Origin: an uncultured Candidatus Saccharibacteria bacterium
GTDB lineage: Bacteria; Patescibacteriota; Minisyncoccia; JAHISW01; Tagabacteraceae
Assembly: GCA_964601305.1 (NCBI GenBank)
Contig: CAZRMW010000001.1
Location: forward strand, 34,376 to 98,375
Length of the DNA stretch: 64,000 nt
Direction of reading: 5' to 3'
In this document: one piece after another, positions 6,001 to 46,099 of the stretch
Layout of the letters: every line of letters begins with the position of its first letter
Numbering within the stretch: the stretch's first letter is position 1
Notes under the pieces: model-generated
What the model was told of the DNA's origin: nothing
Database searches by the model: none
What the model saw: only the letters and a program-made list of their open reading frames with translations
Program-made: the position numbers and the translations under genes

Positions 6001-6444
6001 TCCCTTTACGTACTCATAAATTGCTTTTTTCCATGCTTTGTTTCCTTTTGGCATATGAGTATTCATTTGTAGGCCTTGGCTTGTAGCCCACTGCTTTGCT
6101 GTGTTAAGTCCCCTATCCCCAAAAAGGCCTTCGTTGTAAACTGGATCATAAAAATGGTGCATCCATCTTGGTGGAGTGTCTTCGTCTATGGCCCCTTCTA
6201 TTATCCACTCTTTTTGTTTGTCTGTAATACTTCTCTCAAAATTAATATTATAAAAATTTATAGCTTCGTTTGTAAGTGCTGGATGAGTAGTTTTATCGTC
6301 CCAACTAAAAACAGTCTGAGCCCCAAAGCCCAAACTGCTTAAGTAAAACACAAATATTAAAATAAAATTTATTTTTCTGTTCATCCCACTAGAAATTTTC
6401 TTTTTCATGTTTTTAATTTTTTTATTTCTATTAGAGTAATTCAT
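3043..6444 (-). CDS. large secreted multidomain protein: signal peptide, Zn-dependent phospholipase C / S1-P1 nuclease-like domain, lamin-tail domain, right-handed beta-helix repeats
   Basis: N-terminal basic/hydrophobic signal peptide. WDDKTTHPALTNEAI, HHFYDPV and LHLLEDMAVPEHT match the Zn-PLC signature (W-x-x-E/D-x-H, HFYDP, LH-x-x-D). INEIAWAGTDNSAYDEWIELFN is a lamin-tail-domain signature. N-rich repeats (NNNTFLENLRGLYLSNSNTIANNNTFTSNSGG) are pectate-lyase-like beta-helix. Confidence 0.8.
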   Translation of the reverse strand: MNYSNRNKKIKNMKKKISSGMNRKINFILIFVFYLSSLGFGAQTVFSWDDKTTHPALTNEAINFYNINFERSITDKQKEWIIEGAIDEDTPPRWMHHFYDPVYNEGLFGDRGLNTAKQWATSQGLQMNTHMPKGNKAWKKAIYEYVKGNEKDAFYTLGFTLHLLEDMAVPEHTRNDPHPGDSPLENFSKQFNIENFKIADSLNSYEPASLESIEEYFDYLANYSNNYFLSKDTANGEGYERYNKPEIIDGDEYGFGVDKDGSYFKLARTKEVWDKDGEKKLAEYELEDDNEDYKPILQGYWNRLSREAVISVAGAINLFFQEVEKARNDESLLEKPPVPKTALITIAEDFLPGSGSRFWGAIKNVGNKIKDVFDKEKKDQTNDLINEVGLPEGSTTSKLNFQDKDSTFEKDEKQANQRATQKQEKEYTAVSAVFAVVETMADTKDNNLISEVEPRYRGSTSIVVATKSVSSPNNPQEAPVIEDDSISEVELPEEDSTSEVATTTPETASTTPETPEEVFAEHSILINEIAWAGTDNSAYDEWIELFNNTENGIDLDGWVLFSETDNGPYINLSGTLGSGEYYLIERTDDTSVPDVEADYIGSFGNGLSNSGERLVLVQATSTATTTIDSTPEGAWPAGDTDKYTMERYDTENWYTNNDFLGNKGTPKFANSVNSILTINKNIDRNLTIRRLNNPVLVDNINAVVESGVLLTVEPGVEIKFNGDSGFNILGKILAQGTESEPIAFTSAQENPNPGDWFGICINENAENGSIFEYTNFSYGGKYYNNSFDKSLLVSWGPEISVSNSSFKYSKVYGLRLKNSNSQIANSVFEGNEADGVYTENGEPTINNNTFLENLRGLYLSNSNTIANNNTFTSNSGGAIYSSGELGSFSGNSGSNNNPNSINIWGNLTNTNSTKTLKSNDIPYYLNGYETPTVVESSQLTIENGVVIKGGEKTLNVNGNFVIDGQNPSDIIFTSIYDDEISGDSNNDETSTMPQAGQFAGINISETGSLVASGFTMKYAGSVMSGGRDKAGILLEGSTAQIANALFKNNYPHGIRAVNSENVSIENARFEEHNYSGPWGTKAAVVVENSTTSLSNVTFENNLLGVLGDGLSAITATLIEWIENTATTSPEGLF

Positions 6445-9438: not shown

Positions 9439-10647
9439 ATGAGTTTTCTATCTTCTACAAAATATTTTGACGGGAAAATTTCTCACGGCTTTGTGTCTCT
9501 TTATACAAGCAAAACCATCACAATGATATCTGGGGGTCTTTTGGGATTGTTCCTGCCGATATTTATTTACAACCTTTTAGGACAAAACTTTCAAAAGACG
9601 ATGTTGTTCTATGGAGCTGGCTATTTTTTATATGCAATTTCTTTGTTTTTGTTTGTAAGATTTTTAAATAAATTTGGTTTTAGAAGAGCTCTTCGAGCAA
9701 GCACATTTTTGGGTGCTCTCTATTTCACATTTTTTTATTTTATAGACGAAACTAACTATTCTTATTTTCTTCCTGCTATAATTGTTGTTATAACCTTATA
9801 TAGACTCAGTTATTGGCTCCCTTACCAGGTAGATTTTGCAAAATTTACAAGCAAAAAAAACAGAGGCAAGCAAATAAGCGCAATGAAAGCAACAAGAGAA
9901 GCTATTGGAATTTTTATCCCCCTGATTGCTGGGTTGGTAATAAAAAACTTTGGCTTTGACATACTTTTTATAGTAGCAATAATTCTTTATTTAGTTTCTT
10001 ATATCCCCTACCTTACTATTCCTCGCACAAAAGAAAGATATATGTGGAACTATAAACAAACTTTAGAAAATTTAATTTCTAAAAAAAACAGAAAACAACT
10101 TATAGCCTTTATGTCCGACGGTGCAGAAACTGCCATCTCTGCAATAGTTTGGCCTATTTTTATATTTCAAGTTTTAAAGGGTGATTTCCTAAAACTTGGT
10201 GCTCTTTCAACTTTAATAATTGCTGTTACCATGTTTTTGCAACTTATGATAGGAAAAAAATTAGACAAAACTGGTCACAAAAATAAAATACTAAAATTTG
10301 GGAGTATGTTTTCCTCTATAAGTTGGGTCATAAAAATATTTGTAGTTTCGGCTTTTCATGTTTTTGTTATTGGCGCATTTCACAACATAATGAGAATATT
10401 TACGCGAATTCCTTTCGATTCTCTTACATACGAAATAGCGGCCGACGAAGGCCACTATGTAGATGAGTTTACTGTACTTCACGAAATAGCAGTATCTACA
10501 GGCAGAGTGCTAATGGTAATTTTTGCAATAATTATCTCCTTATTTTACCCAATTCAATATGTGTTTATCATTGCTGCAGTTTCAGCTATTTTCCTAAATC
10601 TTCTTCGCCCTCATCTTGCTGATGAGTCTTTAAGTACTTCTGTCTAA
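9439..10647 (+). CDS. polytopic membrane transporter (MFS-like)
   Basis: 402 aa, about 10-12 TM helices; 3' end overlaps the convergent 10586..13027 gene. Confidence 0.5.
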   Translation: MSFLSSTKYFDGKISHGFVSLYTSKTITMISGGLLGLFLPIFIYNLLGQNFQKTMLFYGAGYFLYAISLFLFVRFLNKFGFRRALRASTFLGALYFTFFYFIDETNYSYFLPAIIVVITLYRLSYWLPYQVDFAKFTSKKNRGKQISAMKATREAIGIFIPLIAGLVIKNFGFDILFIVAIILYLVSYIPYLTIPRTKERYMWNYKQTLENLISKKNRKQLIAFMSDGAETAISAIVWPIFIFQVLKGDFLKLGALSTLIIAVTMFLQLMIGKKLDKTGHKNKILKFGSMFSSISWVIKIFVVSAFHVFVIGAFHNIMRIFTRIPFDSLTYEIAADEGHYVDEFTVLHEIAVSTGRVLMVIFAIIISLFYPIQYVFIIAAVSAIFLNLLRPHLADESLSTSV

Positions 10648-13027
10648 TCTCTGACTCCACTTCGCTGGCTGGTCTACCATATTTTATAGCTGACAATTCT
10701 TTCACCTTGCTTGCCACCTGAGAACTAGTTTCTTCAGGAGGAATTGTTTGTATATTAAAAGGCTTTGTAGATTCGCCACCAACTAAAAGTTTTAGATACG
10801 CATTGTAGTTTGGTATGTTTGTTAAGTCTTCTCTTTCAAAAACCGGCTCAAACATTTTTGCTAAAAATTCTGCATCTTCTTCTCCCACTCTAAATACAGC
10901 AAGTGATCCAACGTTTCCAAAAACAGCTTTTTTTATTTCTTCGTCTAGCTGGCCAATAAATTGGTGTGCAATAGTAAGATCTAGTCGATACTTTCTTGCT
11001 TCAGACAAAATCATAGCAATAGAGTTTGTGGTAATATTTTGAAATTCGTCTATGTAGAAGTAAAAATCTTTTCTTGTGCTTTCTGGTATATCTACGCGCG
11101 ACATTGCTGCCATAAAAATTTTGCCCACAAGAAGCATACCCAAAAGATTTGCGTTTAATTCTCCAAGTCGGCCTTTGGATAGGTTTATTAGTAAAATTTT
11201 ACCATCATCCATTATTTCTCTGAAGTTGAGCGATGTGTTTTCTTGCGCTAAAATTGGCCTCATTATTTCGTTGCTTAAAAATGTATCGAATTTGCTGGTG
11301 ATATAAGGAACAATATTTGCAAGAGCTGCTTCTCCGCCAGCTTTCCCCGCAGTTTCTTTCCAAAAATTATTTACTACCGGATTGTTACTTTTTGAAAGTT
11401 TTAGTTCACGATAATCTTCATCTGTTAACACTCTGGAAATTTCTAAAAGTGTGTTACCGCTCTCTGGATCTTCCATCACAAGGAGTGTGGCGTTTCTAAA
11501 ATATTGCTCAAACATAGGGCCACCCGCCACAGACATATCGTAAAGTTTATCAAAAATCTCTAAAAGTTCGTTTACTATAAAAGTTTTCTGCTCCGGATTC
11601 TTTTTGTCGTACTCAAGCATATTTAATCCAAAAGGTCTTCTTGTGTCTGCAGGATTGAAATATACTACATCTTCCCATCTTTCTTCAGGAATTTGACCTA
11701 AAACATCTTCGAGGTCAGAACCGTGTGGATCTATAAAACACACGCCATGCCCTGCTTTTATATCTTGAAGAACCATATTTTTAAGAAGGGCAGACTTACC
11801 AGTACCAGTCTGACCAATTGTATAAAAATGCCTTCGCCTATCGTCTTCTGAAAAATGTATGTCTGTTTCTTTTCCTCTGAAGAAATTTTTTCCAAGTACA
11901 ACGCCTTTTTGTTGTAAACTTACAGGAGGCTCTGTATTTCTTGTTTTTGAAAGTTTTACTTTTGGAGCAGAAAGACCATAGGAAGGAAAATGAAAAATAC
12001 TTGTAAGCTCTTCTGTGTTTAAATGAAGAGATTCTTTTTCATTAAACAATCTAAAAGAAAAATTATGGAAAAAGTTTTTTAACACAGATCCCTTTAAATC
12101 GTTTGCAACAAAAGCATTGCCCATTACAGAAGAATATTGAGAAAAAGCGCTTTTAACTTGGTTTAAAATACTTTGTGATCGTTCTGTAGTTTGTGAAGAA
12201 ACAACTAGCCGAATATTTGCCCTCATTATTGGCTTCGCAATTTTTTTATTTAAAAAACTTAAAATTTCTGTATTTGCTTCTCTTTCCATAGAAGAAAGCG
12301 CAGACACACCATCTTTGTTTGAATGAATAGTACCCCCCGTGGCCACTTTAAGAAACGAATGTTGCAAACTTTCCCCACCTTTTAAAGCAGATTTTACTGG
12401 CTCTCCAGAATTAATGAGGTTAATAGATTTTTGTACACTTTTTTTAAAATTTGTTTCTTGGGGATCTATTATTATTTGAAGAGAGGCTCCTTCTTTATCT
12501 CTTTCTAAATCAGAAAAAGTGTTCACTACCACTTCAAGTGGGCTTGTTTCTAATTCTTCGTATGTTTTTATTGGCAACACATCGCTAGTTTTTAGTTTTA
12601 GTGTGGCCCCTGCGTTTGGCGCGCCATATTTAAAAATATTATAATCCGCTTTTTCTTCGCGAATTTCTGCTGTTGGGAAAACGGCACGGACTTGATTTTG
12701 AAAAACAGAAATTTTGTCTCTCGGTACAGCCACATAAAAATTAATCTCATTTTCTGTAGACGGAGAAACTATTTCTAGAGAAAAATAAGAACCTAAGTTT
12801 AGCATTCCCATATAAAACTGTTCCATTTTAGAAACAAGCTCTTTGAAAGGCTTTTCTTCTTTTTGGCTTCTTGGGAAACTGACTTCGTACAAAGAAAGAT
12901 CGAGCGCATGCCTTAGATCAGAATCTCTTTTTTGCCTCAAAACAAAAAACAAAAGAAGTCCTATTAAAATAAAAAATAGAGGAAGTATAACAAAAGGACT
13001 AAACAAAAGATCTAATGATTTTGACAT
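10586..13027 (-). CDS. VirD4/TraG/TraD-like type IV coupling-protein-family ATPase with N-terminal TM anchor and about 400-aa unknown N-domain
   Basis: Walker A IGQTGTGKS followed by CFIDPHGSD; C-terminal ARKYRLDLTIAHQFIGQL...VFGNVGSLAVFRV matches the TraG-D_C (TraM-recognition) region; TM helix near the N-terminus. Confidence 0.7.
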   Translation of the reverse strand: MSKSLDLLFSPFVILPLFFILIGLLLFFVLRQKRDSDLRHALDLSLYEVSFPRSQKEEKPFKELVSKMEQFYMGMLNLGSYFSLEIVSPSTENEINFYVAVPRDKISVFQNQVRAVFPTAEIREEKADYNIFKYGAPNAGATLKLKTSDVLPIKTYEELETSPLEVVVNTFSDLERDKEGASLQIIIDPQETNFKKSVQKSINLINSGEPVKSALKGGESLQHSFLKVATGGTIHSNKDGVSALSSMEREANTEILSFLNKKIAKPIMRANIRLVVSSQTTERSQSILNQVKSAFSQYSSVMGNAFVANDLKGSVLKNFFHNFSFRLFNEKESLHLNTEELTSIFHFPSYGLSAPKVKLSKTRNTEPPVSLQQKGVVLGKNFFRGKETDIHFSEDDRRRHFYTIGQTGTGKSALLKNMVLQDIKAGHGVCFIDPHGSDLEDVLGQIPEERWEDVVYFNPADTRRPFGLNMLEYDKKNPEQKTFIVNELLEIFDKLYDMSVAGGPMFEQYFRNATLLVMEDPESGNTLLEISRVLTDEDYRELKLSKSNNPVVNNFWKETAGKAGGEAALANIVPYITSKFDTFLSNEIMRPILAQENTSLNFREIMDDGKILLINLSKGRLGELNANLLGMLLVGKIFMAAMSRVDIPESTRKDFYFYIDEFQNITTNSIAMILSEARKYRLDLTIAHQFIGQLDEEIKKAVFGNVGSLAVFRVGEEDAEFLAKMFEPVFEREDLTNIPNYNAYLKLLVGGESTKPFNIQTIPPEETSSQVASKVKELSAIKYGRPASEVESEIRQKYLKTHQQDEGEEDLGK

Positions 13028-26501: not shown

Positions 26502-27611
26502 TTAAAGAGTAAATTTATCTAACCAGCTTTTCATACTAGATTCTTCTGTTCTAACAATTGTAGGAATATCATCTACTTTTTCTTCATTCTCTTTTATCTC
26601 GTCTCCCACCTTTTCCTTTTCTTGCTCTGGTTCTTGCTCGGAACTTAGACTGTCTTTTTCTTGAGGTTGAACCTCCTTTGGCGGTTCAACCTCGCTAATT
26701 GAATCCGTCGTCGTTAGAATCTCTTCAATCTCCCCTGTTTCTTGAGGCACAGTACCTTCAGCAACAACAGCAGCACCTACTTTCATTAAAAAGTTTTTTA
26801 GATCATCCTCAGAGAAAAACTCCATAGAAATTTTTTTAACAGGTCCCTTTTTCTCAACAGAAACTCTTGTTCCCAGAGCATCTGAAAGTTTTCTTTCCAA
26901 ATTGCCTGCTTCTGGATCTTCTCTTCTCTCCAACTTTATTTTAGCCTTAGTTTTATTTTTAAGAATTTCACGCGCGAGATGCTCTGTAGCCCTCACATTC
27001 ATTTTTCTAAAAATAATTTCTTTGTATAATTCTTTCTGATCATCTTCGTGCTTTATTAAACTTAAAAGTGGCCTCGTGTGCCCTTCTCTAATAAGCCCTG
27101 CTTTTAGCCCTTCTTGCATATCTTCCGGCAAGCTCAAAAGTCGAATAGTGTTTGAAACAAATTCTCTACTCTTACCTACTTTTAGGCCAACTTCATGATG
27201 GCGCATTTTAAAATTGTCCACCAATTGCTTAAAAGCTACAGCTCTTTCTATTGGACTTAAGTCTTCTCTTTGTATATTTTCTATTAAAGCAAGTTCTAAT
27301 TTTACTTGATCTGAAGGTTCTTCTCTAATAATTACTGGCACTTGAGTAAGCCCCGCAATTTGAGACGCACGCCACCTTCTTTCTCCTGCAATAATTTCAT
27401 ATTCTATTATAGTGCCTGTTGGCACTTCTTTTTCTCGACGGATAACTACAAGTGGCTGCAAAACGCCGTATTGCCGAATAGATTCTGAAAGCTCGTTTAG
27501 CTTGTCTTCATTAAAAATACTACGAGGCTGAAAAGTATTTGGCTTTATTTTGTCTACTTCAACAAAAAAAACCCCGCTTTCTTTTCTTATTCTTGGAAGT
27601 TCGTTGTTCAT
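26502..27611 (-). CDS. parB: ParB/Spo0J partition protein with acidic low-complexity C-terminal tail
   Basis: GERRWRASQIAGLTQVPVIIRE ParB box; start at MNNELP (27611); tail region contains an inserted palindromic element (TDSISEVEPPKEVQPQ). Confidence 0.85.
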   Translation of the reverse strand: MNNELPRIRKESGVFFVEVDKIKPNTFQPRSIFNEDKLNELSESIRQYGVLQPLVVIRREKEVPTGTIIEYEIIAGERRWRASQIAGLTQVPVIIREEPSDQVKLELALIENIQREDLSPIERAVAFKQLVDNFKMRHHEVGLKVGKSREFVSNTIRLLSLPEDMQEGLKAGLIREGHTRPLLSLIKHEDDQKELYKEIIFRKMNVRATEHLAREILKNKTKAKIKLERREDPEAGNLERKLSDALGTRVSVEKKGPVKKISMEFFSEDDLKNFLMKVGAAVVAEGTVPQETGEIEEILTTTDSISEVEPPKEVQPQEKDSLSSEQEPEQEKEKVGDEIKENEEKVDDIPTIVRTEESSMKSWLDKFTL

Positions 27612-27667
27612 TGATTTTATTATACAAAAATTGACCAAACGAGGCAAATTTTATATTATAAATTTAG

Positions 27668-27749
27668 GCCGTCGTGGCGGAACTGGCATACGCGCACGAC
27701 TCAAAATCGTGTGAGGCAACTCATGTGGGTTCGACTCCCACCGACGGCA
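27668..27749 (+). tRNA. tRNA-Leu (anticodon CAA)
   Basis: Acceptor GCCGTCG/CGACGGC, anticodon arm CACGA-CTCAAAA-TCGTG, long variable arm (type II), T-arm GTGGG-TTCGACT-CCCAC, discriminator A; no encoded CCA. Confidence 0.75.
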
Positions 27750-27756
27750 CAAAACT

Positions 27757-29629: not shown

Positions 29630-29660
29630 AAAGCCCTTGCCTTATTGGCAAAGGGTTTTT
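29629..29660. terminator. terminator hairpin AAGCCCTTGCC-ttatt-GGCAAAGGG plus T-run
   Basis: GC stem plus TTTTT immediately after the stop of 29312..29629. Confidence 0.5.
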
Positions 29661-29674
29661 ATTATACAAATACA

Positions 29675-31750
29675 ATGAAATATTATATTTTTACATTTGG
29701 GTGTGGCGCCAACCACGCTGACAGTGAAAGAATCGCCAGAAAATTGAAAGCCCTCGGCCACAAAAAAGCAGTTTCTTCCAAAGAGGCTAGTTTAATAGTG
29801 CTCAATGCCTGCTCTGTTAGAAAATCTGCTATAGATAGAGTTTATGGCAAAGTAAAAAATCTAAAAAACAAGCAAATTATACTAGCAGGCTGTCTCCTTG
29901 ATTCAGATAGAAAAAAATTAGAAAAAAAAGTAAAAGCTATTTGGCATCCAGACGAATATTTCGATTTATCCCCCATAAACGAAACTTCTTTTCGTGCGCT
30001 TATACCAATCACAAAAGGTTGTAATAATTTTTGTTCGTACTGTGCTGTGCCCTACACACGAGGAAAAGAAAAATCTCGCCCAGCAAAAGACATAATCAAT
30101 GAAATTAAAGAATTAATAAAAAATAATTATAAAGAAATATGGCTGTTGGGACAAAATGTAAATAGCTATAAATCTGGGAAAACAAATTTTCCAAAACTTC
30201 TTCAGAAAATAAACAAGATTGAAGGTAATTTTTGGATAAAATTTACTTCCCCTCACCCAAAGGATTTCTCCAACGAATTAATACAAACTATAAAAAAATG
30301 TGAAAAGGTTACCAACTACATAAACCTGCCTGTTCAATCTGGGGACAATGAAATTTTGAAGAAAATGAATCGAAAATATACACGCCAGCACTACATTAAG
30401 CTTGTAAACAAAATTAAAAAAGCTATTCCAGATGTAGCAATTTCTACAGATACTATCGTAGGATTCCCTGGAGAAACACGCACTCAATTTAAAAACACTC
30501 TAGATTTGTACAAAAAAATTAAATTCGATATGGCTTTTATTTCACAATACTCCCCTCGCACAGGCACCGTATCCGCACGAACTATGAAAGACAACATAAA
30601 ACACATAAAAAAAGAAAAGCGCGACAAAGAGCTTACAAAAGTATTAGCCAAATATTCGCTCGAGAAAAATAAAAAATTAGTTGGGCAAACTATAAAAGTT
30701 TTAATTGACTCACAAAAAGACACTAATTTTTTTGGCCGCACAGAAGGCAACAAAATAGTTAAAATAAATAAAACTGATTCTATAAGTATAGGAAAATTTG
30801 TAGATATAAAAATAACAAAAGCTACCTCTTGGAAGCTGGAGGGAGAAATCGCTCCTACAAAAATTATAGTAGTTTTGGGCCCCACAAGCTCTGGAAAAAG
30901 CGACTTAGCTGTAGATATAGCTCTTCAATTCCCTTCTGAAATTATTTCTGCAGATTCTAGGCAAGTTTATAAACACATACCTATCGGTACAGGGGCTATA
31001 ACCAAAAAAGAAATGAAGGGTATTTCCCATCATTTGCTAGGTTTTGTAAATCCCAAAAAAACATATACTGCAATAGATTTTAAAAAAGATGCAGAAAAAG
31101 CTATAAAAGAAATTCTAAACAAAAACAAAATACCAATAATATGTGGTGGCACAGGGTTTTATATACAAACACTTTTAAGTGGCAATAATTTACCAAAAGT
31201 AAAACCAAACTGGCCTCTTAGAAAAAAAATGGAGAAAAAAACAGCAGGCCAACTTTTTAAACAACTTCAAAAGCTCGACCCCAAACGCGCTAAAAACATA
31301 GATTCAAAAAACAAGCGGCGTTTAATTCGTGCTATCGAGATTGCTATCAAATTAACGAAGTCGGACTTCGATAGTTCACTACCGAAATCCGACTTCAATA
31401 GTTGGGATGTGCTGTATTTAGGTATAGAAAGAAAAAGTGGTAATTTAGAAAAACTTATCAGAAAAAGAATTTTGGGACTTATAAAAAGAGGGCTTTTGGC
31501 AGAAGTAAAAAATTTAAGAAAGAAAAAAGTCTCCTGGAAAAGAATAGACGAACTAGGTTTTGAGTATAAATACCCAGCTCAATATATCCGCGAAGAAATA
31601 AATAAAGAAGAAATGGTAGAAAAAATACTTACAGGAAATAATAAGTACGCAAAAAGACAGATGACTTGGTTTTTAAAATATACCCCAAAGACAATTTGGG
31701 TAAAAAATTCTAAGGAAGCTATGAAATTATCTAAAAAATTTTTAGACTAA
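29675..31750 (+). CDS. miaB-miaA: fusion protein: MiaB-like radical-SAM methylthiotransferase (MTTase-N, radical SAM, TRAM) fused to MiaA tRNA dimethylallyltransferase
   Basis: Start MKYYIFTFGCGANHADSE (MTTase N-terminus Cys), LNACSVR, AGC, CNNFCSYCAVP radical SAM, TRAM region; then IIVVLGPTSSGKSDLAVDIAL (P-loop), ISADSRQVYKHIPIGT, HHLLGF = MiaA. Single continuous 692-aa ORF. Confidence 0.8.
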   Translation: MKYYIFTFGCGANHADSERIARKLKALGHKKAVSSKEASLIVLNACSVRKSAIDRVYGKVKNLKNKQIILAGCLLDSDRKKLEKKVKAIWHPDEYFDLSPINETSFRALIPITKGCNNFCSYCAVPYTRGKEKSRPAKDIINEIKELIKNNYKEIWLLGQNVNSYKSGKTNFPKLLQKINKIEGNFWIKFTSPHPKDFSNELIQTIKKCEKVTNYINLPVQSGDNEILKKMNRKYTRQHYIKLVNKIKKAIPDVAISTDTIVGFPGETRTQFKNTLDLYKKIKFDMAFISQYSPRTGTVSARTMKDNIKHIKKEKRDKELTKVLAKYSLEKNKKLVGQTIKVLIDSQKDTNFFGRTEGNKIVKINKTDSISIGKFVDIKITKATSWKLEGEIAPTKIIVVLGPTSSGKSDLAVDIALQFPSEIISADSRQVYKHIPIGTGAITKKEMKGISHHLLGFVNPKKTYTAIDFKKDAEKAIKEILNKNKIPIICGGTGFYIQTLLSGNNLPKVKPNWPLRKKMEKKTAGQLFKQLQKLDPKRAKNIDSKNKRRLIRAIEIAIKLTKSDFDSSLPKSDFNSWDVLYLGIERKSGNLEKLIRKRILGLIKRGLLAEVKNLRKKKVSWKRIDELGFEYKYPAQYIREEINKEEMVEKILTGNNKYAKRQMTWFLKYTPKTIWVKNSKEAMKLSKKFLD

Positions 31751-32877
31751 TTATAAACAGGTACACTATTTGCGATTTGATATGCTTCTATCTTCAGACT
31801 CTTTCCGTTGTTGTAGTAATTATTAAAATCACTCCCCTCTTTTGAGCCAATATTTACAATAGCATTTGATAAATTTTGCACTGCTTGATTAAACAAGTCT
31901 GCTGATTCTACTATATTATTTACCGTAGTCTGATAAGTATATGGAGTTCTATTTTCATACAAATCTGTAGCTCCTTCTTTAGCGTCGTTAAATAAATCTC
32001 TAGCACGGCTTACAAAAGTAAAAGCAGCGACATCGTTTGATTTGTCTATTTCAGAAATTGCAGAGTTTAAATGATCGTTTCCATCTTTTAGCATACCTAC
32101 ATATATTTGCATCTCGTTGCTTAGTTTTTCTAGTTTTTCCATTTCTGCTTGCCTCTCAAGCTCTTCTGCCCTCCTTTGCTCAGCTTCTATTTGTGCTTGA
32201 GTTTCGTTTATTTTGTTTTGAGATTGTTGCAATAAAGTTTGTGTAGACTGTAAGGCTTCTTCAGTTTGTTTTTTTTGTGAAGATGTTTGTTGGAGTGCAG
32301 ATTCTATTTGGGACTTAGACCTCTCTACCTGCTCCCTTTTTGTTTCTTCTTTTTTTATTGCCTGCCTTAAATTATTTATTTTATAAGAAACTTCTTCCTC
32401 AAAAGAACTAATTAAATCTTTCGACTGACCATACAAAAGCACTGCTTCCTCGTAAAACTTAAACTCTTCATTTAAAACTGCTTCGCTGTTTTTTAATAAA
32501 ACTTCAACACTAATCCAATCTTCTTTCTCTGCTGCTTCTTTTGCTCTTAAAAAATTCTCTTCGGCAATAAAAAGTTTTTTAACACTTTCTATTTTTATTT
32601 CAACCTCATTGTTTTCTGAATTTTTTTCTTTTAGTTTGTCGTAAAGGACGAGAGCTGCTGAATAATTACCACTAGAGGTTTCCTCTAATGCTTCTTCTGT
32701 AAGCTTTTTTTCTACATATCTATTAACTAAATTGTTAGCCAATGCCACTCCTGAAAACAAGCAAAACACGACAAAAGAAGCTAATAAAACTTTTTTGTTC
32801 ATTTTTAACTTTAAATTTGGCCTGAATCTAAGCTTTGAAGTTTTTTTTGTTTCTTTTGGTTTTATGTCGTCCATCAT
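31747..32877 (-). CDS. membrane-anchored coiled-coil protein
   Basis: 376 aa; N-terminal TM then long Q/E/K-rich coiled coil. Confidence 0.5.
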   Translation of the reverse strand: MMDDIKPKETKKTSKLRFRPNLKLKMNKKVLLASFVVFCLFSGVALANNLVNRYVEKKLTEEALEETSSGNYSAALVLYDKLKEKNSENNEVEIKIESVKKLFIAEENFLRAKEAAEKEDWISVEVLLKNSEAVLNEEFKFYEEAVLLYGQSKDLISSFEEEVSYKINNLRQAIKKEETKREQVERSKSQIESALQQTSSQKKQTEEALQSTQTLLQQSQNKINETQAQIEAEQRRAEELERQAEMEKLEKLSNEMQIYVGMLKDGNDHLNSAISEIDKSNDVAAFTFVSRARDLFNDAKEGATDLYENRTPYTYQTTVNNIVESADLFNQAVQNLSNAIVNIGSKEGSDFNNYYNNGKSLKIEAYQIANSVPVYN

Positions 32878-33876: not shown

Positions 33877-33933
33877 TTTTTCTGAACTTACAAAACAAAA
33901 AACATGGCATTTAGCCATCTTTTTTGTTTCGAG

Positions 33934-34004
33934 CACGGGATGAGGGAATCGAACCCCCGACCGCGGTTTTGGAGACCGCTATTATACCACTTAACTAATC
34001 CCGC
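33934..34004 (-). tRNA. tRNA-Trp (anticodon CCA)
   Basis: Acceptor GCGGGAT/ATCCCGT (G1-U72), anticodon arm GCGGT-CTCCAAA-ACCGC, T-arm GGGGG-TTCGATT-CCCTC, discriminator G. Confidence 0.65.
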
Positions 34005-34633: not shown

Positions 34634-34856
34634 CGGTGGGGAGGGATTCGGTCACAAGTCTGCCTGTATAGAGGGATTCGGCCGCTCTCGTGGATCTCGT
34701 TTCGTGCTACGCACTCGCTGCGATCTCACTCCCTCGGCCCCCACTCGGGCTGTCGTCCGCCCAAGGCGGACTCGCTTCACCAGCCCTCGGTTCGAATCCT
34801 TCCTCACTGCAAAACAGTAAAGCCTCAATGCTTCGCATTGAGACTAAACTGTTTTG
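34634..34856 (-). other. GC-rich structured element B (about 220 nt) between tRNA-Tyr and rpmG, beginning with a partial duplicate of the tRNA-Tyr 3' end; homologous to element A
   Basis: GGGGAGGGATTCGG|TCACAAGTC shares the junction motif with 33762..33785; internal GC-rich stems (GTCCGCCCAAGGCGGAC); ends with sense T-arm-like GGTTCGAATCC; GC content far above its surroundings. Confidence 0.4.
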
Positions 34857-34941
34857 TGCATGGGGAGGGATTCGAACCCCCGTAGTCCGTTAGGACGACA
34901 GTTTTACAGACTGTTGCATTTAGCCACTCTGCCACCCATGC
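34857..34941 (-). tRNA. tRNA-Tyr (anticodon GUA), long variable arm
   Basis: Acceptor GCATGGG/CCCATGC, anticodon arm ACAGT-CTGTAAA-ACTGT, variable arm GTCC-TAAC-GGAC, T-arm GGGGG-TTCGAAT-CCCTC, discriminator A. Confidence 0.75.
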
Positions 34942-38892: not shown

Positions 38893-39336
38893 TTATACCT
38901 CTTTTTCTTCTTTTTTTAAATTCTCTATTACTTTTTTGAAAGCCTGATCAGCTAAAACAGAACAATGTACTTTTATTGCCGGAAGTCCGCCCAGTTCTTT
39001 TATAATATCTTGGGGTGTAATTTTTAGCGCTTCGTCTATCGTTTTCCCCTTAACCATTTCTGAAAAAACGGAAGTAGAAGCAATGGCCGTAGCACACCCA
39101 AAAGTCCGCCATTTTAAATCTTTTATTTTAGATTGCTTGCCCTGCCCGGCGGGGTCCAGTTTCACCCACATTTTCATTACATCACCACAAGCTGGAGAGC
39201 CAACTTCTCCCACAGCATCAAACTCCCCTTCTTTAGGGTCTTTGAGTAAAACATTTTTAGGATTGAAAAAATGATCTTTTACCTTGTCAGAATAAAACCA
39301 TTCTTGATCTTCTTTTTTTATATCTGCTTTTGTCAT
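38893..39336 (-). CDS. NifU/IscU-type Fe-S cluster scaffold
   Basis: SPACGDVM, TFGCATAIAS conserved cysteines; start at MTKADIKK (39336). Confidence 0.8.
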   Translation of the reverse strand: MTKADIKKEDQEWFYSDKVKDHFFNPKNVLLKDPKEGEFDAVGEVGSPACGDVMKMWVKLDPAGQGKQSKIKDLKWRTFGCATAIASTSVFSEMVKGKTIDEALKITPQDIIKELGGLPAIKVHCSVLADQAFKKVIENLKKEEKEV

Positions 39337-39507
39337 TTTATTTATGTTTATTAATTCAAAAAACAATATTAAATTTTAAAAATTTATCGCAGGCTGAGCG
39401 GGCATGGTTTTTTCTGAAAGAAAAAGAGCGAAGCCGAGATATAAGCAAATTTTTCACGCTGGGAAAAATATTGCGTTTTTTAAAATTTAGATATTGGTTT
39501 TTAGAAA

Positions 39508-40725
39508 TTATCTCACAGAAGAAATTCCTTTTAATTTTAAAATAATATCTGGCAAAATTTTTAATACATAGTCTACTTCTTTTTTTGTAGTCTCTTTGCC
39601 CATCGTAAATCTAAGCGAACCATGAGCATATTCATGTCCCATACCAATCGCACGTATCACGTGTGAAGGCTCCAAACTATCCGAAGTACACGCCGAGCCC
39701 GTAGAGCAAGCCACGCCCTTAGCATCAAGATATAGCACCATTGCTTCTCCCTCCACACCACGTACAGATATATTTACATTATTAGGAAGCCTATCTTCTC
39801 TTGAACCATTTAAAACACTGTTTGGTATCGTTTTTAATAATTTATCTATAAAATAATCCCTAATTCCAATAAGTCTTTTTGATTCTTTTTCTTTATTTTT
39901 TTGAACTAATTCAAGCGCTTCTCCAAAACCCACAATTCCAGATACATTTTCCGTACCAGACCTTAAGCCCATTTCTTGCCCACCGCCTACGACCATCGGA
40001 TCTATTTTAATTCCTCTTTTTTTATAGAGCATTCCTACACCCTTTGGCCCATATATTTTAGAACCATTTAAAGTCATTAAGTCTACACCCAATTTCAAAA
40101 CATTTAGATCCAAATAAGCCGGTGCTTGCACAGCATCTGTATGTATCAGTGGAGTTTGCAGGTTGTAGGTTGTAGGTTGTAGGCTTTTTTTGAAATTTCT
40201 GATTATTTTTGCGATTTCACGAATTGGCTGTATAGCACCAATTTCATTGTTTGCATACATTATAGAAACCAAAACAGTCTCTTTTCTTAAAGATTCCTTT
40301 AATTGTTTCAAATCTACAATGCCATTTTTATCTACATTTAAATAAGTAATTTCCCAGCCACTTTTTTCTAATCTTTCACAAGCATGAAGCACAGCGTGAT
40401 GCTCTATTTTTGACGTAATAATATGCTTGACACCCTCTCTGTTGGAAGTCGGACTTCCAACAGAATTGGCTATGCCGAAAATTGCTAAATTATCACTCTC
40501 TGTGCCACCGCCAGTAAAAATAATCTCGTCTGAATGGGCGTTTATTGTCTGTGCCACTTTTAATCTAGCCTCCGAAATTGCTTTTTTGGCTTCCCTGCCT
40601 TCTTCATAAATAGAAGATGGATTGCCAAAAACATCGCTAAAAAACGACTCCATTGCTTTTTTAACTTTTGGATCTAAATATGTGGTAGCTGAATGATCTA
40701 AATATATCCTTTTATCTTTATTCAT
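39508..40725 (-). CDS. iscS: cysteine desulfurase (class V aminotransferase, IscS/NifS)
   Basis: YLDHSATT, LNGSKIYGPKGVGMLY (PLP-Lys), SGSACTS (catalytic Cys loop); start at MNKDKRIY (40725). The upstream 33 codons of the track ORF are a repeat element. Confidence 0.85.
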   Translation of the reverse strand: MNKDKRIYLDHSATTYLDPKVKKAMESFFSDVFGNPSSIYEEGREAKKAISEARLKVAQTINAHSDEIIFTGGGTESDNLAIFGIANSVGSPTSNREGVKHIITSKIEHHAVLHACERLEKSGWEITYLNVDKNGIVDLKQLKESLRKETVLVSIMYANNEIGAIQPIREIAKIIRNFKKSLQPTTYNLQTPLIHTDAVQAPAYLDLNVLKLGVDLMTLNGSKIYGPKGVGMLYKKRGIKIDPMVVGGGQEMGLRSGTENVSGIVGFGEALELVQKNKEKESKRLIGIRDYFIDKLLKTIPNSVLNGSREDRLPNNVNISVRGVEGEAMVLYLDAKGVACSTGSACTSDSLEPSHVIRAIGMGHEYAHGSLRFTMGKETTKKEVDYVLKILPDIILKLKGISSVR

Positions 40726-40761
40726 AAAAAAATTATACGATTTTTTTGCATTATTGGCAAA

Positions 40762-40790
40762 CAAAAAAGCCCTGTGCAAGCAGAGCTTTT
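40762..40790. terminator. hairpin AAAAAAGC-cctgtgcaagcag-AGCTTTTT
   Basis: A/T-flanked stem between iscS start region and the end of the thioredoxin-fold gene. Confidence 0.35.
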
Positions 40791-40816
40791 TGAGTAAGTT
40801 TGAGCGAGGTCCAACC

Positions 40817-41410
40817 TCACTCATTTAAAATTTTGTCGATTAGAGCGGCCGTTTTATCGACAGTTTTAACCGGATTATTATAAAAATTATACCGCACAAC
40901 CCCCTTTTTGTCGACAATGACAAGGTGGGGCCAACCTCCTAACCCATACGAAGCTGTCGCCTTTATAACTCCAGACCCATGTTGTTTTTTGCTAACAATC
41001 AAGACCGTCGATAAAAAAGGTCCAAACTTTGTCTTAAACCCTTCAAACTCTTGAGGGTTTTTTGATGTCCACGGCACGCCCACAACTTTCACATCCTCGC
41101 GCGACTCATACTTTTCCGCCAGTTTATTCAGAACTTTGACCTGCTCACGGCAGAGAGGCGCACCAGGTCACCAGAAAGCCAAAACAGTAACACTCCCTTT
41201 AGAAAACTCGGAGAATTTCACATTGTCTCCGGTATCAATATTGGTTGCCGTAAAATCCGGCGCCATTTTGTCCACTGCGGAATTTGTTTCAACAACAACC
41301 ACCGGAGTGTCCTCTTCCACGGAAGTATTGAAGGCACCTGCTGTGCCAACAAAAAGAAGTGAGAAAATCGCCATCGCCAGAATCGTTAGAGTTAAAAGTC
41401 TCGTTTTCAT
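40817..41410 (-). pseudogene. disrupted thioredoxin-fold (TlpA/AhpC-TSA-like) secreted protein gene, GC-rich
   Basis: N-terminal part (signal peptide ...APDFTATNIDTGDNVKFSEFSKGSVTVLAFW) stops at an in-frame TGA exactly where the redox motif is expected (FW-TGA-PGAPLCREQ). C-terminal part (VKVVGVPW...GWPHLVIVDKKGVV) is in another ORF. GC content clearly above its neighbours. Confidence 0.5.
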
Positions 41411-42847: not shown

Positions 42848-44608
42848 TTATTTGAGCTTCTCTATCTCTTTGCTAAGATATTTCTTCATTTTTACTACAG
42901 TGCTTTTCAACCCTTTTAGAGAATTATTTATCATTTCTTTGTCTTCAGATTTAAATTTTTGTTTTTTCAAACTCTTTTCTAAATCTTCCATATCGTTTTC
43001 CATAAGTTTGCTCAGTTTTTTTATATCTCTTCCAACAATTATTTTATATGCGCTCCTTTTCTCTTTTTCAGAAACATAATACCAAGCCACAAAAGATCCA
43101 ACAGAAGAAAAAATTAAAACTAAAATAATAACTATCTCAAACCACCCGAAATCCACAACACCCAAAGAAATTATTGTTTTTGCTGTAATTTTAAAAGATA
43201 TTGGCTCTGTATTGTAGCTTACGCCACCCCTATCGTCTCTTGATGAAATCAAAAACTTATATTCTCCCCCCTGAAACGGCTCTTCTATTACAACTTCCCA
43301 ATTGCCAACCTTATTGCTCTCTGAAAAAGTAGTAAAAATTATCTGATCATCTTTTAAAATCTTTACATCCACAAACCCATTTGGAACAGCCTTTCCAGAA
43401 GCAAACAAAAACTCGCCTCCAGAAACTTTTTTTGTTATAAAATCTACTACCGGTTTTTCAAGAGGAATTATTTCAAACTTAATGTCATCTTCCACGCTGT
43501 TTCCTGCCTTATCGAAAACACGCACCACTAAATCGTGCTCCCCTGGAGATTGAGGAGGCAACAACAAAAACTCATCTGTAGATTCTACCGCCTCTTTTCC
43601 ATCAATAAAAATCAAAGCGTGAGAATAACCAGAAAGACTATCTTGTGTTTTAAACTCTATCTCGGGGACAGGATTGTCGCTAACAAACGAACTGATTTGC
43701 GTTTCAAAAGGGAGAGGTGAAGTTGTGTCTATGGCAATTTTATAATGAGTCACCTCTCCCCAACCTTTATTGTTTTTAAATTGTACATGTACATAGTGTA
43801 TTCCTTCACTCAAAACTCCTATATTTTTACCTGTAAAAAGTTCTTCTTCGGAAGTGGTAGGCTCTGACGACACTTTTGCGTTTACCTCTACTGCAACTTT
43901 TATTACATCTTCAGGAACATCCCACAAAACTATTGTATTTCCTTGGTGGTTGTACCATTTCCCATGCTCAGGATAAAAAGGAACTCTAACAACCGGAGCC
44001 TCGGGCGCATCTACTGCTTTTACAGCTACTCGTTCAACTCTTTGCGGAAGCTCTTCTTTTTCAACCTCTTGCGGAACAAAAGGGATTTCAGCTTCTATAG
44101 TTTTTGCGCCAATTTTTATTTTTGTGCCTGCCATTTCAGAAAGCACATTTGTGCCTTTTCCATCGTTTGCAGTAACCACAGATTCATCAAAAGAAATGTT
44201 TGCAACACCAGTACCAACAACCTTGAAGTTTATTCTAACAATTTGAAGTGCCCCACCAGAGACACCCTTTGCAGTGCCCCCGATAAAACTTACTCGCCCC
44301 AGCTCATTGTTTATTTCTGGTTCGTCTATCCAAAAATTAAAAACAGAACTATTTTTATCTGTACTAACAACCTCTAAAATATTGTTCGAAAAATTTACTG
44401 TAGACTGAACCGCATTTATAAAAACATCGCTTGTATCTACTTTTACATCTACAGAAAATTCCTGTCCACGCGCAAAAGTCTTCCCTTCTGGAAGCAAATA
44501 AAGAGTAGATGCATTAGCAGAAGGCGCAAACGCCAGAATAAAGAATAAAGAATAAAGAATAAAGTTGCTTAACTTTAAAATATTCATAATTCGTGATTCA
44601 TAATTCAT
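42848..44608 (-). CDS. type-I membrane-anchored surface protein with N-terminal cohesin-like domain and Ig-like middle region
   Basis: Signal peptide; GQEFSVDVKVDTSDVFINAVQSTVNFSNNILEVVS...VRINFKVVGTGVANISF resembles cohesin; C-terminal TM plus basic tail; N-terminus paralogous to 58607..59602. Confidence 0.55.
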   Translation of the reverse strand: MNYESRIMNILKLSNFILYSLFFILAFAPSANASTLYLLPEGKTFARGQEFSVDVKVDTSDVFINAVQSTVNFSNNILEVVSTDKNSSVFNFWIDEPEINNELGRVSFIGGTAKGVSGGALQIVRINFKVVGTGVANISFDESVVTANDGKGTNVLSEMAGTKIKIGAKTIEAEIPFVPQEVEKEELPQRVERVAVKAVDAPEAPVVRVPFYPEHGKWYNHQGNTIVLWDVPEDVIKVAVEVNAKVSSEPTTSEEELFTGKNIGVLSEGIHYVHVQFKNNKGWGEVTHYKIAIDTTSPLPFETQISSFVSDNPVPEIEFKTQDSLSGYSHALIFIDGKEAVESTDEFLLLPPQSPGEHDLVVRVFDKAGNSVEDDIKFEIIPLEKPVVDFITKKVSGGEFLFASGKAVPNGFVDVKILKDDQIIFTTFSESNKVGNWEVVIEEPFQGGEYKFLISSRDDRGGVSYNTEPISFKITAKTIISLGVVDFGWFEIVIILVLIFSSVGSFVAWYYVSEKEKRSAYKIIVGRDIKKLSKLMENDMEDLEKSLKKQKFKSEDKEMINNSLKGLKSTVVKMKKYLSKEIEKLK

Positions 44609-44626: not shown

Positions 44627-46099
44627 TTAAATTTTTATGTTTTTTAAAAATATACTAAAATCTATAATATCTATTTTACCATTACCGTCTAAATCTATTT
44701 CTCTTCTAAGCGATTTTTCTTTAGACCCCCATCTAAACAAAAACATACTCCAATCTACAACATTTATAGAATTGTCTTTGTTAAAATCTGCTTTAGGAAA
44801 ACTTAGAGACGACACTCTAAAAGAACGCGGAAAAGAAAAACCACTATCTTTTCCTTCTTTGTTTGTTTGACCAACACGAACTTGAAAATCCCCTGCCCCC
44901 AAATTGCTTGGATTTAAAATAAATTCATAATAACCATTATTATTAGCTTTTGTTTCTTCTTTTATTATATCACCTACCTCTATTTTTACTGCACTTCCTG
45001 CTGTGGAATACCCAAATATTTTTATATTTTTGTCTAGTGTAAAAATACCGTTACCAAAATTTATTGTTGGTGGGAAAAGGATATCTCTAGCTACTAAACT
45101 TTTTTCAGAATTAAAATCTACATTAAATGACATTGACCCAGTTTTTTGTCCCATTTTATCTATAGCCCTAATACTAAAAAAGTATCTGCCTGTAAGAAAA
45201 GCTGTGTAAGATATATTAAACTCTCCGCTACTTGATATATTGTATGTACTAAGTGGTACATTTCTATATACATCGCTAACATCATCTCTAAATAAAACCT
45301 CCACTTCGCTTCTTGGAAAAGCTTTGCCAGAAAAAAGAACTCTTGTGGGAGCCACCCCTCCACCCGTAGGAGTAGATATGCTTGGTTGCCCACCAGATCC
45401 ATTTGTGACTGTAGTAGCCTCACTTGGCACATTAGATAAACTTGAAGTGTTTGGAACTTCGTCGGATACTTTAATAGCAAAGTAATAAGTAGTATTTGCA
45501 CTAAGCCCGGAAACTGTCATACTCTCAGAGCTTCCCGCCACACTTGGTGTGGGCTCTCCTGTGACCTGTGTTGCATTATTAAAATCTGTGTCGTTTGTGA
45601 TGTTTGAGGTTGAATAACGAACATCGTAAGTTGTGGTAGTTCCCGAACCAGCGTCATCGCCTGGTGCTGTCCACGAGAGATTTATGGAAGTTTGGGTAGC
45701 CCCTAAAGCGGTTAAATTATTCACCGCCGACGGTGCTGTAGTATCAGAAGGCGGAGTTGTATATGTAAAACCACCAACTAAAGTTCCCGATTTACCATCT
45801 GATGTACGAGTATAAACAACATCCTGTGCCCCAGCTGTGCCACTAGGAGTTGTCGCTGTCATCTCTGTGCTACTTACAATAATAAGATTTGTTACTGACC
45901 CCCCACCAATAGTCAGCGTTCCTGCTGCAAAACCTGTCCCACCGATAGTTACATCGATCCCTCCCGCCGTTGAACCAGAAGTGGGAGAAATAGAATTAAC
46001 ACTTGGTGCTGGTGCAGCAAAGACACTCCCTGTACTTAAAAAATAGAGGAATAAAAAAACTACTAAAAATTTTAATGAGTGCCCACAAAAATATCTCAT
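44627..46099 (-). CDS. secreted protein with IPT/TIG, fibronectin-III-like and C-terminal dockerin-like domains
   Basis: Signal peptide; GGIDVTIGGTGF (IPT); TSINLSWTAPGDDAGSGTTTTYDVRY (FN3); DFNKDNSINVVDWSMF...DLDGNGKIDIIDFSIF (paired dockerin Ca-binding repeats). Confidence 0.6.
   Translation of the reverse strand: MRYFCGHSLKFLVVFLFLYFLSTGSVFAAPAPSVNSISPTSGSTAGGIDVTIGGTGFAAGTLTIGGGSVTNLIIVSSTEMTATTPSGTAGAQDVVYTRTSDGKSGTLVGGFTYTTPPSDTTAPSAVNNLTALGATQTSINLSWTAPGDDAGSGTTTTYDVRYSTSNITNDTDFNNATQVTGEPTPSVAGSSESMTVSGLSANTTYYFAIKVSDEVPNTSSLSNVPSEATTVTNGSGGQPSISTPTGGGVAPTRVLFSGKAFPRSEVEVLFRDDVSDVYRNVPLSTYNISSSGEFNISYTAFLTGRYFFSIRAIDKMGQKTGSMSFNVDFNSEKSLVARDILFPPTINFGNGIFTLDKNIKIFGYSTAGSAVKIEVGDIIKEETKANNNGYYEFILNPSNLGAGDFQVRVGQTNKEGKDSGFSFPRSFRVSSLSFPKADFNKDNSINVVDWSMFLFRWGSKEKSLRREIDLDGNGKIDIIDFSIFLKNIKI

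Follow-up and report, generated by a model that had tools for sequence, protein, structure and literature searches.

A stretch of 64,000 nucleotides from an uncultured Candidatus Saccharibacteria bacterium (GenBank assembly GCA_964601305.1, contig CAZRMW010000001.1, positions 34,376 to 98,375; hereafter the window, with positions counted from its first letter) carries a gene in which MiaB, a tRNA methylthiotransferase (MTTase), runs without a stop into MiaA, the tRNA A37 N6-dimethylallyltransferase. We are highly confident that the product is a genuine bifunctional MiaB-MiaA protein. MiaA prenylates N6 of A37 in tRNAs with the sequence A36-A37-A38, and MiaB then methylthiolates C2 of the resulting i6A37. 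The enzymes themselves are textbook and no new chemistry is involved; what is new is the architecture, in which nature has placed both steps of a tRNA-modification pathway on one chain. The fusion is apparently undescribed: a full-text literature search returned no description of a MiaB-MiaA fusion, of MTTases without a TRAM domain or of ms2i6A in bacteria of the candidate phyla radiation, absence from such a search being no proof. Public records label the fused proteins solely "MiaA" or solely "MiaB". In pathway reconstructions for Patescibacteria, one of the two steps will as a result be counted as absent when it is not.

The listing of open reading frames in the window contains one uninterrupted frame at 29645-31750 on the plus strand, and translation from the ATG at 29675 gives 691 residues. 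An alternative TTG start at 29645 falls within a terminator-like hairpin (29634-29654), which argues that the ATG is the right start. P0001, from a public protein collection, is identical to the window protein across all 691 residues. A first-pass annotation, made from the letters alone, had proposed a single polypeptide with exactly these coordinates, in which complete MTTase-N, radical-SAM and TRAM domains are followed by a full MiaA; P0001 bears out the polypeptide, and Pfam and NCBIfam coverage the architecture. It had also classed the MTTase half as MiaB, read the motifs GPTSSGKS and DSRQVY in the second half and placed the fusion point at the end of TRAM. The models and residues given below agree with each of these, and the junction reads exactly as it had been quoted. 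The parts of the gene are as follows.

29675-31750, plus strand: MiaB-MiaA fusion coding sequence, 691 amino acids and a stop, a single open reading frame (identical to P0001 in public data; present in independent JGI and Logan assemblies)
29678-29935, plus strand: MTTase N-terminal domain UPF0004, residues 2-87 (Pfam PF00919, E = 6.9e-19)
30002-30508, plus strand: Radical_SAM core, residues 110-278 (Pfam PF04055, E = 2.2e-31)
30671-30850, plus strand: TRAM domain, residues 333-392 (Pfam PF01938, E = 4.5e-13)
30842-30880, plus strand: fusion junction, residues 390-402 (G-E-I-A-P-T-K-I-I-V-V-L-G), read directly from the sequence
30857-31747, plus strand: MiaA half, residues 395-691 (TIGR00174, Pfam IPPT)

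Residues 1-392 form a complete MiaB, with N-terminal MTTase, radical-SAM and TRAM domains. Pfam E-values across the domains of the whole protein range from 4e-63 to 5e-13, and the MTTase domains all score above their gathering thresholds. Three ligands of the auxiliary [4Fe-4S] cluster (Cys10, Cys46 and Cys73) lie in the UPF0004 domain, and the CxxxCxxC of the radical-SAM core is formed by Cys116, Cys120 and Cys123 (nucleotides 30020-30043). Conservation was read from an alignment of 118 fused homologs sharing 45-67% identity. Cys46, Cys73, Cys116, Cys120 and Cys123 are invariant in all 118, while Cys10 is a cysteine in 100 and a gap in the rest, and is never substituted. The spacing from Cys73 to Cys116 (residues 74-115, 29894-30022) is 43 residues in the window protein and in about half of its fused relatives; across the other fusions the distance from Cys73 to the radical-SAM motif ranges over 35-75 residues, and is 55-75 in those without the short form. 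The Bacteroides MiaB structure 7MJV has about 45-50 more residues between the N-domain and the radical-SAM core (residue 105 of the query pairs with residue 160 of the chain), so the window protein has a trimmed linker there.

Is the first half truly MiaB? The three-domain plan is common to all MTTases, the stricter MiaB model NF010916 scores 327 against a cut-off of 606 and the spacer is unusually short, all of which could be taken to mean that the radical-SAM half is another MTTase of the MtaB or RimO type, or that one of the halves is a degenerate, non-catalytic tRNA-binding module. We consider this extremely improbable. Paralogs were separated with NCBIfam equivalog models and their curated cut-offs: the protein passes the MiaB model TIGR01574 (384.5; cut-off 355.3) and fails MtaB (TIGR01579, 284.3; cut-off 357), MtaB-like (TIGR01578, 276.1; cut-off 314.7) and RimO (TIGR01125, 244.3; cut-off 357). 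When the N-terminal half is compared with solved structures by phmmer, the best match is the Bacteroides MiaB 7MJV at 257 bits, against 175 bits for RimO, and Foldseek aligns the AlphaFold2 model with 7MJV at a template modeling (TM) score of 0.83 and a root-mean-square deviation of 2.5 Å. Linkage to MiaA, the maker of the i6A substrate, is likewise consistent with MiaB specificity, and the catalytic residues of both halves are all invariant, which argues against a degenerate half. The window protein resembles stand-alone MiaB from Bacteroides uniformis (PDB 7MJV-7MJZ) in its three domains, six cluster cysteines and membership of TIGR01574, at 34% identity; it differs in continuing covalently into MiaA directly past the last TRAM strand.

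The second half is an equally complete MiaA. It scores 224.3 against the TIGR00174 cut-off of 148.65 and covers positions 1-284 of 288 in that profile; Pfam IPPT matches residues 430-666 (profile positions 1-240 of 243), preceded by an IPT P-loop region at 396-452. The P-loop GPTSSGKS occupies residues 402-409 and DSRQVY residues 427-432, and G402, G407, K408, D427, S428, Q430 and Y432 are invariant in the 118 fused homologs. As no substitution occurs at the cluster cysteines or at these residues of the P-loop and DSxQxY, we conclude that both halves are under purifying selection as enzymes. The best solved relatives of this half by phmmer are the MiaA structures 3D3Q, 2QGN and 2ZM5. Like stand-alone MiaA (Escherichia coli MiaA-tRNAPhe, 3FOZ and 2ZM5; Staphylococcus epidermidis, 3D3Q), it is full length and has the P-loop, DSxQxY and the insertion domain; unlike them, it has no initiator methionine or N-terminus of its own, and its strand 1 begins two residues after TRAM. 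By Foldseek the model is nearer to the tRNA-bound E. coli conformer (3FOZ and 2ZM5, TM 0.80-0.82) than to apo MiaA (0.67-0.73). Motif scans of the window found one copy each of miaA and miaB and no second copy of either.

A further feature of the MiaA half is an inverted repeat with a 19-bp stem at 31356-31397 (residues 561-575), with a predicted RNA folding energy of about -21 kcal/mol. A tandem duplication (KSDFDSSLP / KSDFNS) gave rise to it, the duplicated unit (GAAGTCGGACTTC) being a palindrome in its own right, and it lies in a hypervariable loop that includes the only segment of the model with a predicted local distance difference test score (pLDDT) below 50 (residues 567-574). We considered it as a repeated element and rejected this, since it is a local tandem duplication with no further copy in the window.

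At the junction, ...ATSWKLEGEIA-PTKIIVVLGPTSSGKS, a single reading frame continues from one half into the other, unbroken by a stop or a shift of frame. DSSP assigns the last TRAM strand to residues 388-392 and MiaA strand 1 to 395-401 of the model, leaving two residues between them. The AlphaFold2 model itself, built with the 118 fused homologs, has a mean pLDDT of 91.5 and a predicted TM score (pTM) of 0.83. From this pTM we infer that the halves may be rigidly packed, with TRAM bridging both enzymes into a defined arrangement. The junction is 12 residues long in P0002-P0006, P0009, P0010, P0013 and P0014, 11 in P0008 and 20 in P0007; the 12-residue form is thus kept in most members of the window clade, down to about 57% identity.

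Two further explanations would remove the fused protein altogether. In relatives with separate genes, miaB and miaA lie in different frames with overlapping stop and start, and a 1-nt indel error merging such a pair in sequencing or assembly could mimic a fusion. Several independent lines of data speak against this. The identical 691-residue frame is found in JGI metagenome 3300009405 and in Logan assemblies of SRR9166041, the latter from other runs. The fused orthologs P0002 and P0006 (64-65% identity) occur in NCBI metagenome-assembled genomes (MAGs) and again in independent Logan assemblies, P0002 within the same DprA-TopA-ParB synteny as in the window. The best 120 matches in a collection of 5.8 billion proteins all carry IPPT and radical-SAM domains on one chain of 578-873 amino acids, and these fused clusters are drawn from NCBI, JGI, ENA and Logan. 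A complete, closed Nealsonbacteria genome of 647,540 bp also carries the fused gene (L001, which is P0099). The first-pass annotation had named a stop or frameshift between the domains as the finding that would overturn it; there is none, and independent assemblies and diverged orthologs contain the same fused frame. Because the frame is identical in independent assemblies and orthologs at 57-67% identity keep the 12-residue in-frame junction, an artefact is already largely refuted, and we give it practically no credence.

Alternatively, the cell might make two proteins from the frame, either because translation starts internally at the junction or because the chain is cleaved by a protease. 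In favor of this is a Shine-Dalgarno-like GGAGGGAG at 30838-30845, covering the L-E-G-E codons; in unfused relatives the ribosome-binding site of miaA would fall here. Because the motif is not followed by a usable start codon, an internal start for a separate MiaA was rejected: there is no in-frame ATG or GTG at the junction or between codons 380 and 400, which is also a point against an indel artefact, and the sole start-type codon, TTG401, lies one codon 5' of the P-loop glycine and would delete MiaA strand 1. The GGAGG is moreover mostly a consequence of the protein sequence, namely the W-x-L-x-G-E motif at the end of TRAM, W386, L388 and G390 being common residues at their alignment columns. 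With two residues between the TRAM and MiaA strands and high pLDDT, the junction is also a poor protease site. Two separate products are therefore very improbable.

How did the two genes come to be joined? Species-representative genomes were scanned with patterns lying in the MiaA half, so that frequencies across genomes are qualitative only. At least 46 loci among the matches listed had both halves matched. Of these, L001 alone spans the junction as a single open reading frame; in L003 the halves are joined there too, but the gene has a frameshift elsewhere. In the remaining listed loci miaB and miaA are separate neighbors, arranged in the order seen in the fusion. In many cases the ATG of miaA overlaps the stop of miaB or directly adjoins it (with ATGA-type overlaps in L007, L018 and L034), and it lies 8-15 codons ahead of the P-loop glycine, the position of the window junction. 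These adjacent pairs (L002-L066) share gene order and families with the fused forms and are 40-74% identical to them; they make two polypeptides, whereas both the stop and the start are gone from the window gene. Among the matches listed, the adjacent pair is found across many lineages of Patescibacteria, in Chloroflexota (L020, L041, L047, L053, L057, L060 and L064, including Limnocylindrales) and in "Ca. Aerophobus" (L043), a distribution that could reflect a shared ancestral operon or transfer. In other Patescibacteria no MTTase lies within 10 kb of miaA. Taken together, these loci define three genomic states: dispersed, adjacent and overlapping, and fused. The first-pass annotation had suggested a survey of fused and separate genes in related genomes; most of those examined carry adjacent miaB then miaA, and the fusion recurs among the ultra-small Patescibacteria.

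The abundance of the fusion was gauged with HMMER, run exhaustively against 1.84 billion cluster representatives at 50% identity. About 14 full-length fused proteins and some junction-spanning fragments were found, and below them in the list came ordinary MiaB proteins of 400-480 amino acids. The fused clusters at this identity number about 15-25 and the stand-alone enzymes thousands, so the fusion, though well populated, is a minority form. A neighbor-joining tree was built from 119 fused proteins and 33 concatenated unfused pairs (152 sequences). It is a rough tree with biased sampling, the proteins having been selected as fused, and the number of events read from it is approximate. The nearest fused and unfused sequences are 65-74% identical. 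Since the two forms interconvert often, the covalent link is not essential, and what is conserved is the close pairing of the miaB and miaA genes. The adjacent pair is likely the ancestral state, with fusion derived and changeable. The fusion probably originated in an adjacent miaB-then-miaA pair whose overlapping or abutting stop and start were lost, which would have welded the last TRAM strand onto MiaA strand 1. With all three genomic states present side by side and many switches among them, the family shows gene-fusion evolution in action.

Why place both enzymes on one chain? In published structures (7MJV; 3FOZ and 2ZM5), both enzymes hold the anticodon stem-loop and flip A37 into their own pocket. 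Judged from sequence, the MiaA half would transfer the dimethylallyl group of dimethylallyl pyrophosphate to N6 of A37 in tRNAs reading UNN codons (A36-A37-A38), and the MiaB half would next add a methylthio group to C2 of i6A37 through its radical-SAM and auxiliary [4Fe-4S] clusters, using two molecules of S-adenosylmethionine. One likely gain would be obligatory 1:1 co-production. A second would be a high local concentration of the second site, so that the MiaB half could recapture i6A-tRNA from its own MiaA half. Because both sites need the same flipped A37, the tRNA would be handed over by proximity and not passed through a tunnel or sealed channel. The first-pass annotation was right about identity and architecture; its suggestion that the fusion channels the i6A-to-ms2i6A step is probably too strong, given the shared flipped A37 and the frequent switches between fused and unfused forms. 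Proximity hand-over or simple co-production is more likely than true channeling, and with moderate confidence we favor a functional reading of the fusion along these lines. MnmC, the bifunctional mnm5s2U34 enzyme, and archaeal Kae1-Bud32 (t6A) likewise unite cooperating tRNA-modification activities on one chain in some lineages and keep them separate in others; the analogy is one of logic only, as there is no sequence relationship, folds and chemistries are unrelated and other nucleotide positions are modified.

Several observations weigh against a functional role for the link itself. The anticodon-loop contacts of the two enzymes overlap, and both halves cannot act on one tRNA simultaneously. 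Fused and unfused forms interleave on the tree, with at least 15 changes by Fitch parsimony compared with about 30 for shuffled labels, and the junction, measured from the TRAM-end glycine to the P-loop glycine, varies between fused clades from 10 to 27 residues. This suggests that the covalent link carries little selective weight. In addition, P0011, a fusion without TRAM, is predicted as two independent bodies (pLDDT 84.9, pTM 0.51) joined by a disordered linker at residues 327-334, from a shallower alignment (58 sequences versus 118), so fusion does not always mean a defined interface. Such a changeable link makes a near-neutral fusion a serious rival. The same bifunctional protein would then be a selectively neutral by-product of overlapping stop and start in streamlined genomes, its halves working separately on tRNA that diffuses freely, and the fusion giving no kinetic advantage over co-expression. 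Besides the parsimony changes among 152 sequences, the close identity of fused and unfused neighbors, the clade-specific length and sequence of the junction, the few fused clusters and the floppy linker of P0011, the unfused pairs already overlap at stop and start, the usual signature of translational coupling. Against neutrality stand the near-constant junction of the window clade, the confident whole-chain geometry of the AlphaFold2 model and the at least 120 clusters at 90% identity that keep the fusion with both halves under purifying selection. On balance we judge a neutral fusion possible, though not the account we would choose over hand-over or co-production.

What becomes of TRAM in these proteins? 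TRAM usually counts as an invariable component of every MTTase. Among the best 120 fused relatives, the distance between CxxxCxxC and DSxQxY is bimodal: TRAM is kept in 62 and absent in 58. In the fusions without it (for example P0011, P0012, P0015, P0019, P0022, P0025 and P0030), the C-terminal helix of the radical-SAM domain runs straight into MiaA strand 1. MiaB also lacks TRAM in some unfused adjacent pairs (L011, L013, L018, L019, L025, L032 and L034), and presence of the domain changes at least 17 times on the neighbor-joining tree. PMC10702137, with reference to Esakova et al. 2021, describes MTTases as enzymes of three domains, each of which contacts the tRNA. Repeated loss of TRAM in the MiaB-MiaA family challenges the view that the three domains are required by all MTTases.

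A bolder proposal would explain this loss, both in 58 of the best 120 fused relatives and in several unfused pairs. MiaB and MiaA of Patescibacteria, and perhaps of Chloroflexota, would form one obligatory "ms2i6A synthase" unit, either fused or co-translated, in which the tRNA is bound once, largely by the MiaA half, and A37 is swung between the pockets with the tRNA body unreleased. The rigid, linker-less junction between TRAM and MiaA would then be the structural form of this unit. We regard the proposal as rather unlikely; should the TRAM-less forms and the rigid junction prove MiaB and MiaA to be one tRNA-binding unit, the significance of the fusion would be greater. The fusion is in any case a ready system for studying how tRNA passes between two enzymes in competition for one flipped nucleotide: the single chain lends itself to co-crystallization or cryo-electron microscopy, and the kinetics of fused and split forms can be compared.

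Three tRNA genes of the window are predicted to encode substrates of the fused protein.

27668-27750, plus strand: tRNA-Leu(CAA), loop CUCAAAA (A36-A37-A38), by ARAGORN and Rfam
33933-34004, minus strand: tRNA-Trp(CCA), A36-A37-A38, by ARAGORN and Rfam
34856-34941, minus strand: tRNA-Tyr(GTA), A36-A37-A38, by ARAGORN and Rfam

All three tRNA genes of the window are thus UNN readers with C32-U33-N-N-A36-A37-A38 loops. This neighborhood persists in close relatives: in L083 and L084, tRNA-Leu(CAA) ends 1 nt ahead of the ATG of the fusion gene (4932-5016 in L083), and the downstream position of tRNA-Trp and tRNA-Tyr is kept in L003 (3200-3569), L085 (7667-7738 and 8616-8701) and L086. Three other loci have tRNA-Cys(GCA) upstream. 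No general enrichment of UNN readers was found in 41 other loci, where they account for 5 of 16 neighboring tRNAs. In L085, tRNA-Trp adjoins rpmG, which encodes ribosomal protein L33; tRNA-Trp beside rpmG is a common bacterial arrangement. Given this adjacency and the 5 of 16 elsewhere, clustering of substrate tRNAs was set aside as a functional link and is probably inherited synteny.

The signals ahead of the fusion gene are compact. The small gene upstream is closed by the following element, which also contains the hairpin already mentioned.

29634-29665, no strand assigned: terminator-like hairpin (29634-29654) followed by a T-run, from the sequence and a consensus scan

A promoter-like TTGCCT-17-TATTAT at 29637-29665, a consensus match only, overlaps the hairpin, and its -10 element ends 10 nt 5' of the ATG. 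Inspection of the sequence ahead of the ATG at 29675 revealed no Shine-Dalgarno motif. The mRNA from this candidate promoter may therefore be leaderless or have a very short leader. At its other end, the fusion gene overlaps by 4 nt at its stop with a convergent gene (31747-32877, minus strand), whose 376-residue product has no Pfam match and contains a long Q/E-rich stretch that, judged by eye, resembles a coiled coil.

The window has a G+C content of 34%, and the nearest named relatives are Patescibacteria MAGs. The genes of the window are of housekeeping type, encoding DprA, TopA, ParB, a class-III aminotransferase, a GNAT acetyltransferase, ClpB, HtrA, SerRS and RNase HII. About 7 kb from the fusion gene, a NifU-like scaffold (38893-39366, minus strand) and a class-V aminotransferase resembling the cysteine desulfurases NifS and IscS (39508-40824, minus strand) form a putative minimal Fe-S assembly system, relevant to maturing the two [4Fe-4S] clusters of the MiaB half. 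The ParB homolog upstream (26502-27647, minus strand) ends at its C-terminus in a long acidic tail with many E, K and P residues. Large predicted surface proteins are encoded on the minus strand at 3043-6444, 42848-44608 and 44627-46099; one, of 1133 amino acids, has beta-helix and lamin-tail domains, and the others have Big_13, fn3 and TIG domains. A homolog of the TrwB-like coupling protein lies at 10586-13027. Together with the surface proteins, it is typical of the cell-surface and DNA-uptake content of Patescibacteria.

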